64,000 nucleotides of DNA from Alphaproteobacteria bacterium (GTDB lineage: Bacteria > Pseudomonadota > Alphaproteobacteria > SP197), in the NCBI GenBank assembly GCA_964291415.2, contig OZ219918.1, forward strand, positions 64,001-128,000, given 5' to 3'. Numbering within the stretch: the stretch's first letter is position 1; each line of letters opens with the position of its first letter. A program made the translations under genes and the position numbers. The notes under the pieces were generated by a model. It saw nothing but the letters and a program-made list of their open reading frames with translations, was not told the DNA's origin and made no database searches. Below, piece after piece: positions 18,690-25,059 of this stretch.

Positions 18690-19906
18690 GGCGGCGCCTC
18701 TTCTTCCAGGTCTATCTCACGTTTCTTTCGATCATCGTCCTCTTTGGCGTGCTGACCGCGCTGGCATGGTGGTTCATCCCCGATGAACACCGGGCGGGCG
18801 ATTTCACCCGGGGCATGGGGTCCTATCTCCAGGAGACGCTGCCGCCTGTCGGAGCGCCACGCCACCAAATCGACGCCCATCTCGCCCGCCTGGCGGAGCA
18901 CTTCGACGTCAACCTCGTCCTGCTGGCTCCCGACGGTGCCATCCTGGGGCGTTCCGGCTCCGGGGAGGAGAGGCGGCACCGCCGGCACGCCATCATGCTT
19001 TCCGACGGACGGACCATGGAGGTCGTCTGGTCGAAGGATGGTGTCTCCGGAGCCGGATTCATCGTCGTTCCCGGGCTTCTCGCGCTGGCTGCCGCCATCG
19101 GCGCCTGGCCCCTGTCGCGCCGCCTCGCCGGCCGTCTCGAGCGGCTGAAGTCCAGGGTCGAGGCCCTGGGTTCAGGGGACCTACAGGCGCGTGTCAAGGT
19201 CGAGGGCAGGGACGAGATCGCCGCCCTCGCGACGAGCTTCAACCACGCCGCCGGGCGTATCGAGGACCTTGTGGAGGCCCAGCGCAACACCCTGGCGGCA
19301 GCATCCCATGAACTGCGATCTCCGCTGGCGAGGATCGCCATGGCCACAGGATTGCTCGCCGACACAGCGGATCCACAACTGGTCGCCAGGATCGAGCGCG
19401 ACATTGCGGAGCTCGATCAGCTGATTGACCAAATCCTGCTCGGCAGCCGCCTCGAGATCGAGGAGGGACCGGCCCGTCTCGACGAGATCGATCTTGGCGC
19501 ACTCGCCGCCGAGGAGGCGGCACGCTTCGAGGTCGCGTTCACTGGCGGCACGGCCGTGATCGAGGCCGAGGAACACCTGGTCCGTCACCTCGTGCGCAAC
19601 CTTCTCGGCAATGCTCGGCGTCATGCCGCGGGAAGTCCAGTGAGCGTCGAAGTCGCGGCTGACGGACCAGGGGTGCGCCTTCGTGTCGCCGACAGGGGCC
19701 CCGGGGTGAGCGAATCCATGAGGGAGAGCATCTTCGAGCCGTTCCGCTCCTTCGCCGCTGATGGCACGGGTGCCGGTCTCGGTCTCTATCTGGTGCGGCG
19801 CATCGCGAGACGCTACGGTGGCGACGCAGTCTGCCTCGAGAGGCCAGGCGGTGGCGCGCTCTTCGACGTCAGCCTGCCTGCCAAGGAAGAGGAGCAGGGC
19901 CCATGA
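18686..19906 (+). CDS. HAMP-domain sensor histidine kinase
   Basis: Two TM segments, HAMP, SHELRSPL H-box, N-box NLLGNA, DRGPG, GAGLGL. Confidence 0.93.
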   Translation: MRRRLFFQVYLTFLSIIVLFGVLTALAWWFIPDEHRAGDFTRGMGSYLQETLPPVGAPRHQIDAHLARLAEHFDVNLVLLAPDGAILGRSGSGEERRHRRHAIMLSDGRTMEVVWSKDGVSGAGFIVVPGLLALAAAIGAWPLSRRLAGRLERLKSRVEALGSGDLQARVKVEGRDEIAALATSFNHAAGRIEDLVEAQRNTLAAASHELRSPLARIAMATGLLADTADPQLVARIERDIAELDQLIDQILLGSRLEIEEGPARLDEIDLGALAAEEAARFEVAFTGGTAVIEAEEHLVRHLVRNLLGNARRHAAGSPVSVEVAADGPGVRLRVADRGPGVSESMRESIFEPFRSFAADGTGAGLGLYLVRRIARRYGGDAVCLERPGGGALFDVSLPAKEEEQGP

Positions 19907-20533
19907 CAAGCACGCTCGATGCCGGCGGCTTTGACGTCTCTGCCGAGCACTCGACCACGCTGCCCTCGAGCTGGTACCGCGATCCCGCCATCTGGCGCCT
20001 CGAGCACGAGGCGATCTTCTACCGCAGCTGGTGGTATCTTGGACATGTCAGCGATCTCCCCCGACGCGGCGACTACCTCACCGGCAGGATTGCCGATCAG
20101 AATGTTCTCGTCATCAGGGGTCACGACGGGGTGTTGCGCGCCTTTCACAACGTGTGCAGCCACCGCGCTCATCCGCTGCTCGAGGGCTGCGGCAACACGG
20201 CCTTCATCACCTGCCCCTACCACCAGTGGACCTACGACGCGAACGGCCGCTTTCGCAACGGCCGGGGATGCGAGCCCCTGAGGGAGTGGACTGACGCGAA
20301 CGCCGACCTCAAGCCTGTGCGGCTCGAGGACTATGGCGGCTTTCTCTTCGTCAACCTCGATGCCGGTGCGATCCCCCTCATCGACCAGGCGGGGCGCTTT
20401 CTCGAGAACATGCGCCGCGCCTGTCCGCGGTTGCCGGACCTGGTGCGCGCCTGTCGCTGGGAAGTCGACGTGGCGGCGAACTGGAAGACGGTGATCGACA
20501 AGGGGATTACATACGTAACTTGACAGAATCGAC

Positions 20534-20562
20534 TTGACATCCAGTGGTGTTATCGGCATGAT
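20534..20562 (+). promoter_or_regulatory. Putative sigma70 promoter for tnpB
   Basis: TTGACA-17nt-CATGAT just inside the left TIR, about 40 nt upstream of ATG 20604. Confidence 0.55.
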
Positions 20563-21689
20563 TTCGCGAAGTAAATCAGTGTCCGCAACACCGGAGTCCC
20601 CGCATGTCGTCCTCTGTCACCTATCGACAGATCACCTTTCGCCTGCTGCCCGAGAAGCGCAGCACCTGGCGGCGGCTGGACGCCATGCTCGACGCGCAGC
20701 GCTGTCTCTACAACGCGGCGCTCGAGGAACGGATCGACTGCTACCGGAAGACCGGGAAGTCACTCACCTACTTCGATCAGGCAAAGTCCCTGACCTTGTG
20801 CCGGAAGGTTCTGCCGGACATGGCTGCGATGCCGGTGGCCATCCAGCGAGGGACGCTCAAGCGCCTCGATCATGCCTTCAAGGGGTTCTTCCAGCGGGTG
20901 AGCCAAGGTGGGGCCGGGTTCCCCCGGTTCCAGGGACGCCGGCATTTCAACAGCCTGTCCGTGGTCTCCGGCGTCAGGGTCGAGGGCAACCGTCTGCGCA
21001 TCCCCGGCCTGGGCTGGCTCACCATTCGCCGCCGGGGCGGCAATCCCTGGCCGCAGGGCACGCCGGTGAGCGCGGTTCTCAAGCGCGAGGAGGGACGCTG
21101 GAAGGCGGTGGTATGCCATGCGGTGTCTCTGCCGGAACCGGACGACAACGGCCATGCCGTCGGCGTGGACATGAATGCGGGCCAGGTGGCGACCTCGGAC
21201 GGGGAGATCCTGCGCCTGGAGAGGAGCCGGCGTCTTGAGGCCCGCGCCCGGCGCTATGCCAGGCAGCTGGCGCGGCAGCGCCGTGGCAGCAGACGCCGGG
21301 AGAAGACGCGGCGGCGTCTGTCGAAGACCACCCGGCGCATGGCGATGAAGCGCCATGACTGGCAGCACCATGTCAGCCGCCGCCTGGCGGATGCGGCCGG
21401 CACGGTGGTGGTCGAGGATCTGAAGGTCCGCAACATGACCCGCAGCGTCAGGGGCACGAAGGAGGAGCCGGGACGCCACGTGCGCTCCAAGGCGTCATCC
21501 TGGAGACGGGCTGGTCGTCGTTCCGGAGAATGCTGGACTACAAGGCGCGCCGCGTCATCGCGGTGAACCCGGCCTGGACCAGCCAGACCTGTGCAGCGTG
21601 CGGCGTCGCAAGCGCCCAATCACGCAGGACGCGGGATCTCTTTCAATGCGTGGCGTGCGGCCATGCGGATCATGCCGACCTTGTATGAC

Positions 21690-21989
21690 CGGGTTTCATT
21701 CCCGTGATCACGTCATCCACAGCGGTTGGGATTGGGAAAGTGTGGACAACTGCGGTTGTGTAGGAGCTGTCCGGTCTATGGTTTCAGAGAGATTCCGCTC
21801 CCCTGCGCGAGGGCGCACAGGGGAGCGGGGTGCGGAGATCTCACGATCCCCGCGGAGGTCGGTCGGAGCCGACCTGGCTTTGTAGAGCCGTCATTGAGCT
21901 TGGTCGGCCGGCCTCCCTTGACGTCCCTCGCGTCCTGAATGGATGCCTGGGCTTGGACCGTATCATCACAAGGCGAGGAGCAAGGGACG
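21690..21989 (+). ncRNA. Bridge RNA of the IS110 element (5' boundary approximate)
   Basis: Target loop closed by 21854-21865/21905-21916 with LTG GCCGACCT (21868-21875) and RTG CATTGAG (21892-21898); donor loop closed by CCTCGC/GCGAGG with LDG ATGGATGC (21939-21946) and RDG ACAAG (21968-21972). Confidence 0.8.
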
Positions 21990-22902
21990 ATGGTTAAGGT
22001 AGTGGCAGGGATCGATGTCGGCAAGGCCAGCCTGGACATCTGCGCGGCGGGCAGACGCGTCGTTTTGCCAACGACGCCACGAGCTGGCGGGCGCTGGGTG
22101 CGTGGCTTCGGGGTCTCGAGGTGAGCCGGGTGGTGATGGAGGCGACGGGCCGCTATCACCGCAGGGTTCACCAGTGTCTTCATGACCGGGGCTTCGAGGT
22201 CATCGTGATCAACCCGTTGCGGGCCCGGCGCTTCGCCGAGGTGATGGGCCATCTGGCCAAGACCGACCGCGTCGACGCGTTGATGCTGGCCAGGCTGGGG
22301 ACGGCGCTGGGCGACGATCTTGAGCCGGTGGCCCCTCAGGAGGCCTTCCTCAACCGCTTGGAGGATCTCCTGGTGGTGCGCGCCAGGCATGTCGATACGC
22401 GGACCATGCTGAGGCAGGTGGCGGGTGAGGTGGACGGCGAGGGCGAGACCCTCACACGGGCCACGATCGCCGATCTCGACGAAAGGATTGCCGCACTGGA
22501 TGCGGCGATCGAAGCGCTGATCGCCGGTGATCCCGAACAGGCCGAGCGGTACAGCATCCTGATCTCGATCCCCGGCGTCGGTCCGGTGACCGCCGCGGCC
22601 CTTCTTTGCTGGATGCCCGAACTCGGCAGTCTCGAGGGTCGCCAGGCGGCAGCGTTGATCGGGGTGGCGCCGGTTGCCGACGACAGCGGCCAGCACCACG
22701 GCGCCCGGCACATTCGCGGCGGGCGCCGCAGGCCACGCGATCTCCTGTTCATGGCCGCGACTTCGGCGTCACGCTACAATCAGGATCTCGCCATCGTGTT
22801 CCAACGCCTCAAGGCCGCCGGCAAGGCCCACAAGGTGGCGATCGTTGCCGTGATGCGCAAACTCATCGCGCTGGCGAACGTCCTGTTGCGGGAACAGCGC
22901 TG
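21990..22902 (+). pseudogene. IS110 recombinase/transposase; 1-nt frameshift near 22055, 3' end disrupted
   Basis: GIDVGK in one frame, then RRFAND...VVMEATG, KTDRVDA, SIPGVG, DDSG, GGR, AVMRKL in another. Confidence 0.88.
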
Positions 22903-22948
22903 CCGCCTGAAGCACCGGCACGCTCACCGGCGTGAAGGAGACTCCCTC

Positions 22949-23245
22949 ATGGCCCTCACGCCTGCAGAGAAGCAGCGCCGTTATCGGGAACGGCTCAAGG
23001 CCGGCATGTCTCCCGTGCGCACCCGCAAGCTCCGTGACCGACGCTCGCGGGCCCAACGCTGGTGCGATGCGGTGGCCGAACTCGGCGCACTGCAGGAGCA
23101 CTATCGGGACTGTCTCGACAGGCTCCCGGACTCGCTGCACGACACAGCCTATGGAGAGCGCCTGCAGATCATCGTCGAGGCCGACATCGAGGCCCTCGAG
23201 GAGATCGAGCCTCCGCGCGGCTACGGACGGACACATGACACATGA
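22949..23245 (+). CDS. Small hypothetical mobile-element-associated protein (basic TPAEKQRRYRER N-terminus)
   Basis: GAAGGAG RBS, 98 aa; in frame with the truncated IS110 gene but unrelated to it. Confidence 0.6.
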   Translation: MALTPAEKQRRYRERLKAGMSPVRTRKLRDRRSRAQRWCDAVAELGALQEHYRDCLDRLPDSLHDTAYGERLQIIVEADIEALEEIEPPRGYGRTHDT

Positions 23246-23488
23246 CACCTGGAGCCCCATTGTGCGCGGTAACGTTCTGACTGTGGTCACAATGCCCGGC
23301 ACCCTCATGCCGGGTAACGTTACCGCAATCAATGGCGAACACCCCACTCATGCTGCCGGGCGAACTCAACGTCTCCCTGGCCACGGGGCGTAGACACCGC
23401 AATGTCGGAACGTCAGACCGCATGGGGACAGACCAGGGAAACATCTTCACGCACGCTCACAAAAACCTTGCACCGAAACATGGATGCT

Positions 23489-23640
23489 CAATGCAGCGGC
23501 GAACATTCTGGCCTCGGGGACTGGGGCATCTGCGCGGGGAGGTTGCCGGGTTGCCGGGCCTGTGAACCGCGAAATCGATCGGAGGATGGCAGCATGACGC
23601 TGTCAACTTCTCGATATAAGTCCCATCGACAACAATCACG
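23489..23640 (+). ncRNA. Putative TnpB omega-RNA (scaffold overlapping the tnpB 3' end and right TIR; guide from the flank)
   Basis: Hairpin GCCTC-GGGGACT-GGGGC (23511-23527) whose loop GGGACT is complementary to the terminal AGTCCC (23619-23624); CGCGG/CCGCG stem; boundaries inferred. Confidence 0.6.
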
Positions 23641-24150
23641 AGTGCTACCACTGCGATGTCAATCACCGCTCGCTGATGGAACTCGTCGACTATGACGGCC
23701 AGGCCGCATGGTCCGATGACGGCATCACCTTCAGCCACAGGATCACCGCCAGGGATCTCGACAACACGGCCTATCGCCTCGAAGCGGCGGACGTTGAACA
23801 GCCCGAAGCCCTCTTCGGCTATATCTGGCCCACCGCAATCCCCCTCATGTACCCGGGCAGCCCCCATCTGGCGATGTTCCAGGTTCTGCCCACCGGCCCC
23901 GAAACCACCCGCGAGAGATGGGACTTCTACTTCACGTCCCGCGAGCCCTCCGAACTCGAGAGGCGGTTCATGGACTACATCCGCACCGTCCTCGTGGTCG
24001 AGGATGTCCGGCTCTGCGAGAACGTCCAGCAGGGTCTCCACTCGCTCGGCTACCACCAGGGACGGTTCGTCGTCGACAGGGATCACCCCGAATTCAGTGA
24101 GCACCACGTGCACTTCTTCCAGTCCATGGTGCGCGACTCGCTGAAGTCCG

Positions 24151-25059
24151 TCACGGCGTGACCGGAACGAGGCGCCCCAGGACAAGTCCGGCAAAGACCA
24201 GGAGGCCAATCCGGTTGTTGGCGGAAAAGGCCCTGTGGCAGGAGGCCGGGTCATCGAGATCGACGGTGACGAGCTGCCTTGCCAGATCGGCGGCGGCGAC
24301 GGCGAGGACCACCAGGAAGGGCCACCCGGTCCCTGTCAGGTAACCGGCCAGGGCTGCCCCGGCAACGAAGACGCCGTAGAAGAGACCGGTGAGGGGTTTC
24401 GAGCTCTCGCCGAAGGCAAGGGCCGTCGACTTCACGCCGACCCGCTCGTCATCCGTCTTGTCCTGGTGGGCATAGATCGTGTCGTAACCGATCGTCCATG
24501 CGATGGCGGCGAGGTAAAGCACCAGGGGTTCCGGTGAGAGCGCGCCCCTGACCGCGACCCAGCCCACCAGGGCCCCCCAGCTGAAGGCGAGGCCGAGAAA
24601 GAGCTGCGGCCAGTAGGTGACGCGTTTCATGAAGGGATAGATGACCACCAGGCCAAGGGAGGCGAGCCCAGTGATGATCGCTGCCTGGTTGAGCTGGAGA
24701 AGCACGATCAATCCTGCGGCAAGCAGCAGGCCAAGGAAGACCAGGGCGCCTGGCAGCGTCACGGCGCCACTGGCGAGGGGACGGTCGCGGGTCCGCTCAA
24801 CCCGGGCGTCGATCCGCCGGTCGACGATGTCGTTGACGATGCAGCCGGCGGACCGCATCACCACGGCTCCGGCGGCGAAGAGGCCAAGGAGCGTCCAGTC
24901 CGGCCATCCAGGCGAAGCCAGGGCAACCGCCCACCAGCAGGGCCACATCAGGAGCCAGAAGCCAGCGGGCCTGTCGACGCGCGCCAGTTGCAGCCACGGT
25001 CGCCACTCGACGGGCGCCCGTGCGTTGACCCACTCCCTGAAGAACGGACGCCGGCTCAT
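24151..25059 (-). CDS. ubiA: 4-hydroxybenzoate octaprenyltransferase
   Basis: RVDRPAG, NDIVDRRID..VERT..RPLASG, YDTIYAHQD. Confidence 0.95.
   Translation of the reverse strand: MSRRPFFREWVNARAPVEWRPWLQLARVDRPAGFWLLMWPCWWAVALASPGWPDWTLLGLFAAGAVVMRSAGCIVNDIVDRRIDARVERTRDRPLASGAVTLPGALVFLGLLLAAGLIVLLQLNQAAIITGLASLGLVVIYPFMKRVTYWPQLFLGLAFSWGALVGWVAVRGALSPEPLVLYLAAIAWTIGYDTIYAHQDKTDDERVGVKSTALAFGESSKPLTGLFYGVFVAGAALAGYLTGTGWPFLVVLAVAAADLARQLVTVDLDDPASCHRAFSANNRIGLLVFAGLVLGRLVPVTP

Follow-up and report, generated by a model that had tools for sequence, protein, structure and literature searches.

The window analysed here, a stretch of 64,000 nucleotides from an alphaproteobacterial contig, carries on its forward strand a gene for the alpha-subunit of a Rieske/ring-hydroxylating oxygenase that is split by an insertion. 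The 5' part of this gene lies at 19903..20501 (Pfam Rieske, 1.5e-21), and the 3' part, which encodes the catalytic domain, at 23633..24161 (Pfam Ring_hydroxyl_A, 2.2e-15). The 8-mer ATCGACAA, which makes up the last eight bases of the 5' part, is found at 20494-20501 and again at 23625-23632, and its two copies directly border an element spanning 20502-23624. This element ends in imperfect inverted repeats of 25 nt (left, 20502..20526; right, 23600..23624, both + strand), which match at 17 of 25 positions by eye count. The exact duplication and the inverted ends described in the initial annotation are therefore real. Within the element, the 5' part of tnpB occupies 20604..21681 on the + strand (Pfam OrfB_IS605 and Cas12f1-like_TNB) and stops, just past the last RuvC aspartate, at an IS110-family insertion sequence nested at 21682..23486 (+ strand; Pfam DEDD_Tnp_IS110 and Transposase_20; NCBIfam NF033542, 169.5 bits). 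The 3' fragment of tnpB follows at 23487..23597 (+ strand); it was assigned by alignment to an intact copy and, from fold and covariation, is predicted to serve also as the 5' strand of an omega-RNA-like fold. The only gene of the element proper is tnpB. As it has no DDE transposase of its own with an N-terminal zinc ribbon, the element counts within the IS1595 family as a dependent, non-autonomous derivative.

The IS110 boundaries, placed by aligning the element with an intact copy, leave two bases ambiguous; without IS110 the element measures 1316 bp, the same length as had been claimed earlier. Intact copies measure 1329 bp, and the missing 13 bp correspond to a deletion after 21491, overlooked earlier, which throws tnpB out of frame. 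The claim that the element encodes a TnpB with the RuvC triad and a zinc finger held only in part: the three acidic residues and the CxxC...CxxC finger are present, but the gene is a pseudogene twice over, by the deletion and by the IS110 insertion. The window copy is dead.

At other sites in the genome lie four further full-length copies of 1329 bp each, with identical first and last bases. Since all of them end at the same bases, the ends assigned to the window element are not a matter of chance. All four contain open TnpB frames of 399 aa, in which the RuvC acidic residues and the finger align with those of ISDra2 TnpB. The duplications around these sister copies are exact 8-bp repeats of differing sequence in three cases and of 7-8 bp in one; at the in-genome copy C4:1339554-1340882 the flanks do not match. 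Other tnpB copies with the same ends and different 8-bp duplications had been expected, and such copies were observed both in this genome and at the related loci described below. A genome scan with both end sequences returned 14 matches, which comprise the tnpB copies together with one truncated copy, one solo remnant and both ends of an element of 3161 bp; the scan revealed no paired solo ends without tnpB. The same genome also holds a second TIR-type TnpB element, which is 40% identical.

When the flanks of the window element are joined with a single 8-mer, they give an open Rieske/ring-hydroxylating oxygenase frame of 375 aa, in agreement with the proposal that excision restores this gene. 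Empty alleles had been suggested as a further check, and in all 11 of the 11 orthologous loci from same-genus genomes the Rieske gene was uninterrupted and contained the 8-mer once. For the copies C4:1339554 and C1:540307, flank conservation in 22 same-genus genomes stops short of the junction, which gives no reading of empty sites there.

The TnpB of an intact copy matched ISDra2 TnpB over its full length (E about 2e-32), its D, E and D residues aligning with those of the ISDra2 protein (8H1J/8BF8). It scored 209 bits against NF040570 (cut-off 100) and fell below the cut-offs of NF038281 and NF038280. D189, E271 and D363 and the four cysteines are invariant in 12 members of the clade. All nine of the nine close copies are open, and the 36 pairs formed by these nine frames gave a median dN/dS of 0.29 (range 0.16-0.43). 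These values indicate purifying selection on TnpB.

Reading by eye showed the same type of inverted ends in 16 of 17 related loci (L012 is decayed) and also in L082; 8-bp duplications, either exact or matching at 7/8, were likewise seen by eye in 13 of the 17. These 17 loci and L082 are 35-93% identical to the query and belong to Alphaproteobacteria, a Steroidobacteraceae genome, Thermodesulfobacteriota and Dehalococcoidia. Among the clade loci read, a transposase gene was never found inside the element. A loose automatic detector of TIRs and duplications fired on 14 of 75 mismatched control pairs; it was therefore dropped in favour of reading the junctions and was not used for any count. A quick IQ-TREE run then gave a tree of the 80 best among 406 relatives, with 11 short rows removed and TIR labels assigned by eye. 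The 23 TIR-labelled rows, together with L029 and L037, make up one side of a branch with an SH-aLRT of 87 (97 for the 24-row core), and the 18 Y1-linked rows all lie opposite. The tree proposed in the initial annotation thus placed the TIR-flanked members on one side of one branch, and within our sample the TnpBs with such ends and 8-bp duplications are one clade across four bacterial phyla. A metagenome scan with the left-end pattern gave 0 matches. Scanning with the clade alignment yielded 496 relatives. Of the 80 retained, 0 were complete TIR-type elements by motif and one (L199) was a decayed copy, so that no insertion sites were added. A plasmid collection gave a single distant match, which was uninformative.

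In its ends and duplications the element departs from both IS607 and IS200/IS605. IS607 elements encode a serine-recombinase TnpA and have neither inverted ends nor a duplication, whereas both are present here; among the related loci a serine-recombinase neighbour was seen only at L045, in a neighbour search with one query. IS200/IS605 elements insert 3' of a fixed motif of 4-5 nt. They are moved by a Y1 transposase and have no inverted ends and no duplications (PMC13565253). In contrast, the 25-nt ends of the present elements match at 17/25 in the subfamily of the window copy and at up to 23/24 in L017, and the 8-bp duplications are specific to each site and occur as a single copy in empty alleles. 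The Y1 transposase (Pfam PF01797) had 0 matches in this genome, which is 100% complete; the same search matched 6 of 14 control genomes. A Y1 gene adjoins 18 non-TIR loci and none of the TIR-type loci, and relatives inside the clade have no internal ends of the IS605 type. The scenario named in advance as the refutation, an IS1341-type element lodged in an older MITE, was therefore looked for and not seen, either in the clade or in the genome. Shared ends and an 8-bp duplication, the two features expected of an IS1595-type element, are both present.

An IS1595-family element with matching ends had been predicted, and it was found in the same genome, about 35 kb upstream of the insertion and outside the window (G000:C2:46358-49518, 3161 bp). 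It encodes a protein of 327 aa with DDE_Tnp_IS1595 (1.2e-36; PF12762 passed) and the IS1595 zinc ribbon in Pfam; this transposase, at C2:48464-49444, scored 186.9 bits against NCBIfam NF033547 (cut-off 75). The element also carries a passenger gene of 464 aa. Its end at G000:C2:49494-49518 matches the tnpB left end, which begins at the same first base in all copies, at 21/25 positions for the window copy and at 23/25 for C2:1200166-1201494; at four or fewer mismatches, 0.009 chance matches are expected genome-wide. In a comparison of 30 IS1595-type loci drawn from this family of genomes, it is the same-genome element whose end is closest to the tnpB left end. Its own duplication matches at only 6/8 and lies in an A-run adjoining a second IS1595 element. 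Duplications of 8 bp were also seen at six autonomous IS1595 elements that share the terminal motif, exact at four and matching at 7/8 at two.

IS1595-family transposases were also found in the other hosts of TIR-type TnpBs. All five of the five other genomes tested contained 5-12 matches each, against 1 of 14 control genomes, and among the IS1595 elements in these five genomes and in the genus are ones whose ends open with the same terminal motif as the tnpB elements. Direct comparison of tnpB and IS1595 ends within each of the five genomes gave partial matches within 1.5 kb of a transposase domain, the best being 20/25 and 18/23; in two of the five, no match reached the threshold within this distance. 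Genome G018 has three DNA matches to the element, scored by identity (66-67%), and no match to the partner transposase at E 1e-20 or better was found there. Co-variation of the tnpB and IS1595 ends between G000 and G009 was not discriminating (20/25 in the same genome, 19/25 across, by eye). A possible composite of transposase and tnpB at L037 was rejected, as the adjacent IS1595-family gene lies between its own inverted ends, which are of a different type, and is a neighbour, not a partner.

The 3' end of tnpB lies close to the right end of the element, the stop codon being 17-57 nt from it in 15 of 15 elements and 27 nt in the intact copies of this genome. In the consensus fold predicted for this region, 92.5% of cells are paired. 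Its covariation score of 0.368 compares with an average of 0.205 for shuffles (none of 500 reached the observed score) and with at most 0.119 for slid partners; the structure was predicted and counted on the same alignment, which biases the comparison with the slid controls towards the fold. In the last helix, helix 5, the 3' end of the ORF is paired with the inner part of the right inverted repeat, with compensatory changes at 6 of 7 pairs. At 24 of 28 sites a G immediately precedes the left duplication on its 5' side; the mirror base on the right is C at 8 of 25, indicating no mirror bias, and these counts were made partly by eye. In the six autonomous IS1595 elements this G occurs at 2/6. 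Contigs from RNA libraries (Logan) cover the element end to end, in a form that cannot show RNA starts, ends or strand. Searched against Rfam with E values allowed up to 1, the element matched no family, and a scan for a consensus promoter or terminator in the element found none; the left end has a perfect -35-like hexamer and an imperfect -10.

The most probable explanation, which we would put at roughly 85%, is that the element is a non-autonomous DDE transposon of the IS1595 family with TnpB as its sole gene, its transposase being provided in trans by an IS1595-family element. The checks proposed in the initial annotation all turned out as it foresaw, and its reading is supported. TnpB would occupy the place usually taken by the transposase in an IS1595-type element, and transposition would be of the DDE type, with a staggered cut at inverted-repeat ends repaired to the 8-bp duplication. 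We infer from the sequence that an IS1595 transposase moves the element, a mobilisation in trans that the initial annotation put too strongly, and the element with near-identical ends at G000:C2:46358-49518 is a candidate source. The window copy would have inserted into the Rieske oxygenase gene and later been killed by the 13-bp deletion and IS110, its four sisters staying intact.

As for the role of the nuclease, we infer that TnpB and its predicted omega-RNA serve the element by cutting sites from which it is missing, with an RNA scaffold that would have taken in the right inverted repeat and a guide that would read out into the duplicated 8-mer and the flank. A more specific proposal, which we regard as possible though rather doubtful, is that this TnpB lineage has adapted its guide RNA to life in a cut-and-paste DDE transposon. 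The right inverted repeat would have become the last helix and linker of the omega-RNA scaffold, the guide would consist of the duplicated 8-mer and the right flank, and the G on the left side would be all or part of the target-adjacent motif. TnpB would then cleave any element-free copy of the site, and recombination would copy the element back. Such targets might be offered by a sister replicon, by an incoming allele or by a site restored through collapse of the duplication. If true, the adapted guide RNA would give an IS1595-type element a drive for homing or retention like that of IS605, with no need of a fixed target sequence.

Different explanations of how TnpB came to lie between these ends were also considered. 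An ordinary IS1341-type (IS200/IS605) tnpB element might have landed once in an existing MITE, the composite then spreading with outer ends unrelated to TnpB. The inner right repeat does resemble, by eye, the 3' end of the omega-RNA of Y1-linked relatives, and the close copies could all derive from one composite; against this, the ends and the gene are associated across the clade down to 35% protein identity and in four phyla, with ends and gene diverging together, and covariation links the right repeat to the 3' end of the ORF. Moreover, the stop codon lies too near the outer end for a separate inner right end to fit between them, and neither paired solo ends without tnpB in the genome scan nor a Y1 transposase, in the genome or beside any TIR-type locus, could be found. 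Such a landing is already close to being refuted. It is somewhat easier to imagine, yet still very improbable, that a non-autonomous DDE-type element is moved by a transposase from outside the IS1595 family, be it from another family that makes 8-bp duplications or an unrecognised enzyme. This would fit the partial end matches in other genomes and the related tnpB DNA of G018 with its lack of a match to the partner transposase. It accords poorly with the match of 21-23/25 to IS1595-family ends in this genome against the 0.009 expected by chance, with the terminal motif and 8-bp duplications shared by autonomous IS1595 elements of related and unrelated genomes, and with the distribution of IS1595-family transposases between hosts and controls.

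It would also be conceivable that TnpB is mere cargo, either useless to the element or drifting towards a host role such as RNA-guided repression, with the 3' fold as a relic. A recent review argues that cut-and-paste DDE elements profit little from a homing nuclease, excision already leaving a break (PMC13565253), and a variable 8-bp duplication supplies no fixed target-adjacent motif. The purifying selection on TnpB (dN/dS about 0.29, every close copy open), the invariant catalytic residues, the persistence of the clade across phyla always with the same ends, the compensatory changes in the fold and the G found on one strand only, which autonomous IS1595 elements mostly lack, all speak against this, and we consider the cargo explanation unlikely.

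TnpB, from which Cas12 descends, is known for preventing the loss of IS605 and IS607 elements after scarless excision. Whether and how such a nuclease serves a cut-and-paste DDE transposon, which leaves a break and variable duplications, is described as an open question in a 2026 review (PMC13565253). The IS1595-type reading makes this clade a compact system for that question, with a one-gene element of 1.3 kb and, alongside it in one genome, a candidate transposase; both intact and dead copies are available, as are empty sites. The conserved RNA fold running into the inverted repeat and the one-sided base bias, which predicts a target-adjacent motif, add to its value. For annotation, elements with tnpB alone should not be filed as IS200/IS605 by default.

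The passenger-carrying forms of IS1595 (the ISNwi1 group) resemble the element in their inverted ends of about 25 bp, their 8-bp duplications and the non-transposase genes aboard; the present element differs in having no transposase at all and in that its cargo is an RNA-guided nuclease with an RNA fold overlapping the right end. With the IS1341 group of IS200/IS605 it shares a clear TnpB homologue as sole gene, but it has inverted ends and duplications and sits in a genome without a Y1 transposase. The novelty claimed in the initial annotation was too strong, as a 2023 paper had already reported TnpBs of prokaryotes within DDE transposons with inverted ends, among them solo copies mobilised in trans (PMC10691335). 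In that work, Altae-Tran et al. (PNAS) described the DDE-transposase-associated TnpB branches DDE-1 to DDE-6, found by gene neighbourhood, and read solo TnpBs with the ends of transposase-bearing elements as mobilised in trans. These branches likewise place a prokaryotic TnpB in an inverted-repeat transposon, its 3' end near the transposon end; going by the published text, the transposase is in the locus there (PMC10691335), and in the clade loci read here it is never inside the element. Our clade may overlap one of the branches. IS630 (DDE-6) is the only family named in that text, "IS1595" being absent from the main text and appearing a single time in the SI, in a list of profiles (PMC10691335), and the DDE partners listed in the 2026 review are ISL2, IS630 and IS1031 (PMC13565253). 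We found no report of IS1595 as a DDE partner of TnpB. Fanzor nucleases, reportedly described in eukaryotic TIR transposons by Bao and Jurka in 2013, are similarly TnpB-family cargo of cut-and-paste transposons that are often non-autonomous, and the present element would be a prokaryotic parallel to their capture. In Fanzor elements the inverted repeat is reported to be part of the guide-RNA scaffold (Yoon et al. 2023, PMC10711439), and helix 5 suggests that the right repeat may be so here too. The element differs from them in being prokaryotic, in having a variable 8-mer as its duplication instead of a short fixed one, and in that its RNA is known from a predicted fold.

The element is a tnpB-only transposon inserted in a Rieske oxygenase gene, and it spans 20502-23624 of the window. 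Its 25-nt termini are inverted repeats (17/25 matches), and it is directly flanked by two copies of the 8-mer ATCGACAA, at 20494-20501 on the left and at 23625-23632 on the right. The interrupted gene encodes a ring-hydroxylating oxygenase alpha subunit, with a Rieske domain (1.5e-21) on one side of the element and the catalytic domain (2.2e-15) on the other. When the flanks were joined through a single 8-mer copy, a frame of 375 aa was open, as the initial annotation had stated for excision. The empty allele that it anticipated was observed at 11 of 11 orthologous loci in same-genus genomes (78-94% DNA identity), which pass from left flank to right flank with one 8-mer. The 8-bp repeat is a true target-site duplication, and the occurrence of inverted repeats and an 8-bp duplication around a tnpB is thereby confirmed.

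The element ORFs contain the Pfam domains OrfB_IS605 (4.5e-14) and Cas12f1-like TNB/zinc-ribbon (3.1e-13), and IS110-family transposase domains were observed in a segment nested within it. Alignment to an intact sister copy placed this IS110 at 21682-23486 (two boundary bases are ambiguous) and revealed that 13 bp are missing after 21491, so that the window element minus the IS110 measures 1316 bp as against 1329 bp in intact copies. The window tnpB is therefore a pseudogene on two counts, of which the initial annotation had seen one and missed the other. The IS110 transposase is itself encoded in two frames: 61 aa of its N-terminal part, including the first DEDD motif, lie at 21939-22124 and the remaining 374 aa at 22121-23245, which suggests that the nested IS110 is a frameshifted copy. 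A sequence 90% identical to it over 1.2 kb is present at G000:C1:121838-123053 of the source genome (G000).

The source genome (4.44 Mb, 5 contigs, 100%-complete), in which the window corresponds to C2:64001-128000, carries four further full copies of the element, each of 1329 bp with identical first and last bases, and the 399-aa TnpB frame is open in all four. Three are flanked by their own exact 8-bp duplications, all different in sequence, and one by a duplication of 7-8 bp, depending on the register. An intact copy at C4:1339554-1340882 (L007) has, unlike its sisters, non-matching 8-mers on its two sides, for which flank-exchanging recombination between copies is a possible cause. The genome also holds a truncated left end (C4:587603-588001), small element fragments, and a solo right-end remnant of about 43 bp (G000:C1:829080-829121; L002 2080-2122), which comprises the last hairpin and the repeat and adjoins a gene start without tnpB. 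In sequencing run X3, one contig joins the left and right flanks of the copy at C1:540307-541635 (L004 1499-2833) with the element absent. This contig has a depth of about 10, 74 letters on its shorter side and 13 other letters between two partial duplication copies, and the junction could be an excision footprint or merely a divergent allele.

We scanned the genome with both end sequences of the element, allowing up to 6 mismatches. The 14 matches obtained comprised the tnpB copies, the truncated copy, the solo remnant and the two ends of one 3161-bp element, a member of the IS1595 family at G000:C2:46358-49518 (L001 559-3719). This candidate partner lies outside the window, about 35 kb upstream of the window tnpB element. 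Its 327-aa transposase matched DDE_Tnp_IS1595 (1.2e-36), the IS1595 zinc ribbon and NF033547 (186.9 bits, cut-off 75), and its passenger gene (L001 780-2174) encodes a lipoprotein-like protein of 464 aa with no Pfam family above threshold. The transposase-proximal end of the partner agrees with the left end of the window element at 21/25 positions and with that of the copy at C2:1200166-1201494 at 23/25; with up to 4 mismatches allowed, chance would be expected to yield 0.009 such end matches genome-wide, and with up to 2 mismatches, 2e-5.

The only other IS1595 transposase in the source genome, 56% identical to that of the partner, belongs to a 2468-bp element with 25-nt ends and small extra ORFs (G000:C2:49528-51995; L190 1416-3883), which sits 9 bp from the partner in the same A-run and has flanks matching at 7/8. 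Among 30 IS1595-type loci from same-family genomes, the one closest to the tnpB left end was the partner in the same genome. The terminal motif is shared by six autonomous IS1595 elements whose two ends could both be read, and their 8-bp duplications are exact in four and 7/8 in two. The ends of the tnpB element may belong to the ISNwi1 subgroup of ISfinder. A search of the complete source genome with the Pfam model for the Y1 transposase gave no match, and the same search was positive in 6 of 14 control genomes.

Relatives of the intact 399-aa TnpB (P0001) were collected from species-representative genomes, and the best 80 of the 406 found were kept. Junctions were read by eye at 17 loci (35-93% identity), and inverted ends of the element's type were observed at all but one, the decayed locus L012. 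Duplications of 8 bp, exact or 7/8, were present at 13 of the 17, the others having decayed or truncated flanks. Hosts of these TIR-type loci (about 25-nt inverted ends with 8-bp duplications) are Alphaproteobacteria (among them Paracoccaceae and Thalassobaculaceae), Steroidobacteraceae, where the inverted ends of L082 match at 20/23, Thermodesulfobacteriota and Dehalococcoidia. The source genome itself has a second, single-copy TnpB (L198, approximately G000:C1:387806-389083, minus strand), 40% identical to P0001. It too is bounded by inverted ends of this type, and its 8-bp duplication agrees at 7/8 positions. Within the best 80 of 406 relatives, no Y1 transposase was found beside tnpB at TIR-type loci, whereas it was present at 18 more distant loci, which finish in the usual IS605-type 3' structure.

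In a quick IQ-TREE run on this one query's neighbourhood (74 rows, after 11 short rows were dropped), the 23 rows labelled by eye as TIR-type, together with L029 and L037, which also bear such ends, occupy one side of a branch with SH-aLRT 87 (97 for a 24-row core). All Y1-linked rows fall on the opposite side. TIR-type TnpBs thus appear to be a clade and not a one-off. A tree test for such a clade had been proposed in the initial annotation, which also expected sister copies with the same ends and different duplications and an autonomous IS1595-family transposase with matching ends; the interpretation given there, a tnpB taken over by an IS1595-type DDE transposon and mobilised in trans, is supported.

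Each of five other hosts of TIR-type TnpBs tested has 5-12 matches to IS1595-family transposases, and some of the IS1595 elements in other host genomes have ends that begin with the same motif as the tnpB element. Within those genomes the full-length agreement between tnpB and IS1595 ends, sought within 1.5 kb of the transposase domain, is only partial (20/25, 18/23 and two weak matches, with none in two genomes). At the Dehalococcoidia locus L037, a roughly 1-kb IS of the IS1595 family (1560-2620) directly adjoins a decayed TIR-type tnpB element; considered as a composite partner, it was set aside as a neighbour with its own inverted ends of a different kind. Within the family of the source genome, element DNA is present in 8 of 20 further genomes from the genus but in 0 of 10 from other genera, and 17 of 20 congeneric genomes have the partner-type transposase. 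In G018, another genome of this family, three distant stretches match the element's DNA, and the partner-type transposase has no match at E 1e-20 or better.

P0001 can be aligned from end to end with ISDra2 TnpB (8BF8/8H1J; E about 2e-32), and its three acidic RuvC residues and zinc finger are retained. It scores 209 bits with NCBIfam NF040570 (cut-off 100) and is under the cut-offs of the NCBIfam IS200/IS605-TnpB and IS607-TnpB models. Frames are open in nine of nine close copies, with a median dN/dS of 0.29 (range 0.16-0.43, 36 pairs). All 15 elements compared have their stop codon 17-57 nt short of the right end, and the coding sequence therefore reaches the inner portion of the right repeat. 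We aligned the last 230 nt of these elements with MAFFT, and RNAalifold predicted five helices with 92.5% of cells paired. Counted on the same alignment from which the fold was predicted, covariation scored 0.368; shuffles averaged 0.205, none of 500 reaching the observed value, and sliding the partners gave no more than 0.119. The last predicted helix connects the 3' end of the ORF with the right inverted repeat, of which it takes up the inner half, and shows compensatory change at 6 of 7 pairs; the fold leaves about nine terminal bases unpaired. L198 has a perfect 10-bp stem between the 3' end of its own ORF and its right repeat. Rfam gave zero matches to the element, and RNA-library contigs span it but, being contigs, show no RNA ends. 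TnpB and its predicted RNA appear to be maintained.

Of 10 distinct, script-extracted left junctions of the window subfamily, 9 have G immediately before the 8-mer, as does the tenth after a one-base register shift. Over all readable TIR-type sites the count is 24 of 28, as against C at only 8 of 25 for the mirror base after the right 8-mer (both counts partly by eye). The left excess is significant against a G frequency of 0.325 (binomial, 9e-9), as is the difference between sides (Fisher, 8e-5). Of the six autonomous IS1595 elements, read in the direction of their transposase gene, two have G at this position (p = 0.018 versus tnpB elements, in a small sample). A symmetric DDE target preference would not be expected to leave a bias on one side only. 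The G would fall where a target-adjacent motif is placed if the guide starts at the duplicated 8-mer. Alternatively, it may reflect an asymmetric target preference linked to the two unlike element ends. By eye, the 8-mers that are duplicated appear rich in A/T, in genomes with a G+C content of about 65%, and they often start with AA right after the flanking G.

Full-text searches, judged by titles and abstract openings, found no work on TnpB together with IS1595, and nothing relevant was found for ISNwi1. As far as these searches reach, the IS1595-family partner, the transposase-less TIR-type TnpB clade in four phyla, the covariation that would tie the right repeat into the predicted 3' RNA fold, and the one-sided flanking G are new. 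The general kind has been published before: TnpBs in DDE-type TIR transposons, with solo copies mobilised in trans (PMC10691335). IS200/IS605 and IS607 elements are without inverted ends and duplications (PMC13565253), and some prokaryotic TnpBs are encoded with the DDE transposases ISL2, IS630 and IS1031 (PMC13565253, citing Altae-Tran et al. 2023). Altae-Tran et al. (2023, PMC10691335) describe six DDE-associated TnpB branches, all with inverted terminal repeats, and solo TnpBs of which some bear near-identical ends, read as mobilisation in trans; 'IS1595' occurs nowhere in the main text of that article and once in the SI text, in a profile list for a mobility comparison. For TIR transposons that carry Fanzors, Yoon et al. 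(2023, PMC10711439) describe a repeat lying within the guide-RNA scaffold and an RNA reaching past the duplication, and the predicted fold of the tnpB element is consistent with this repeat-in-scaffold pattern.
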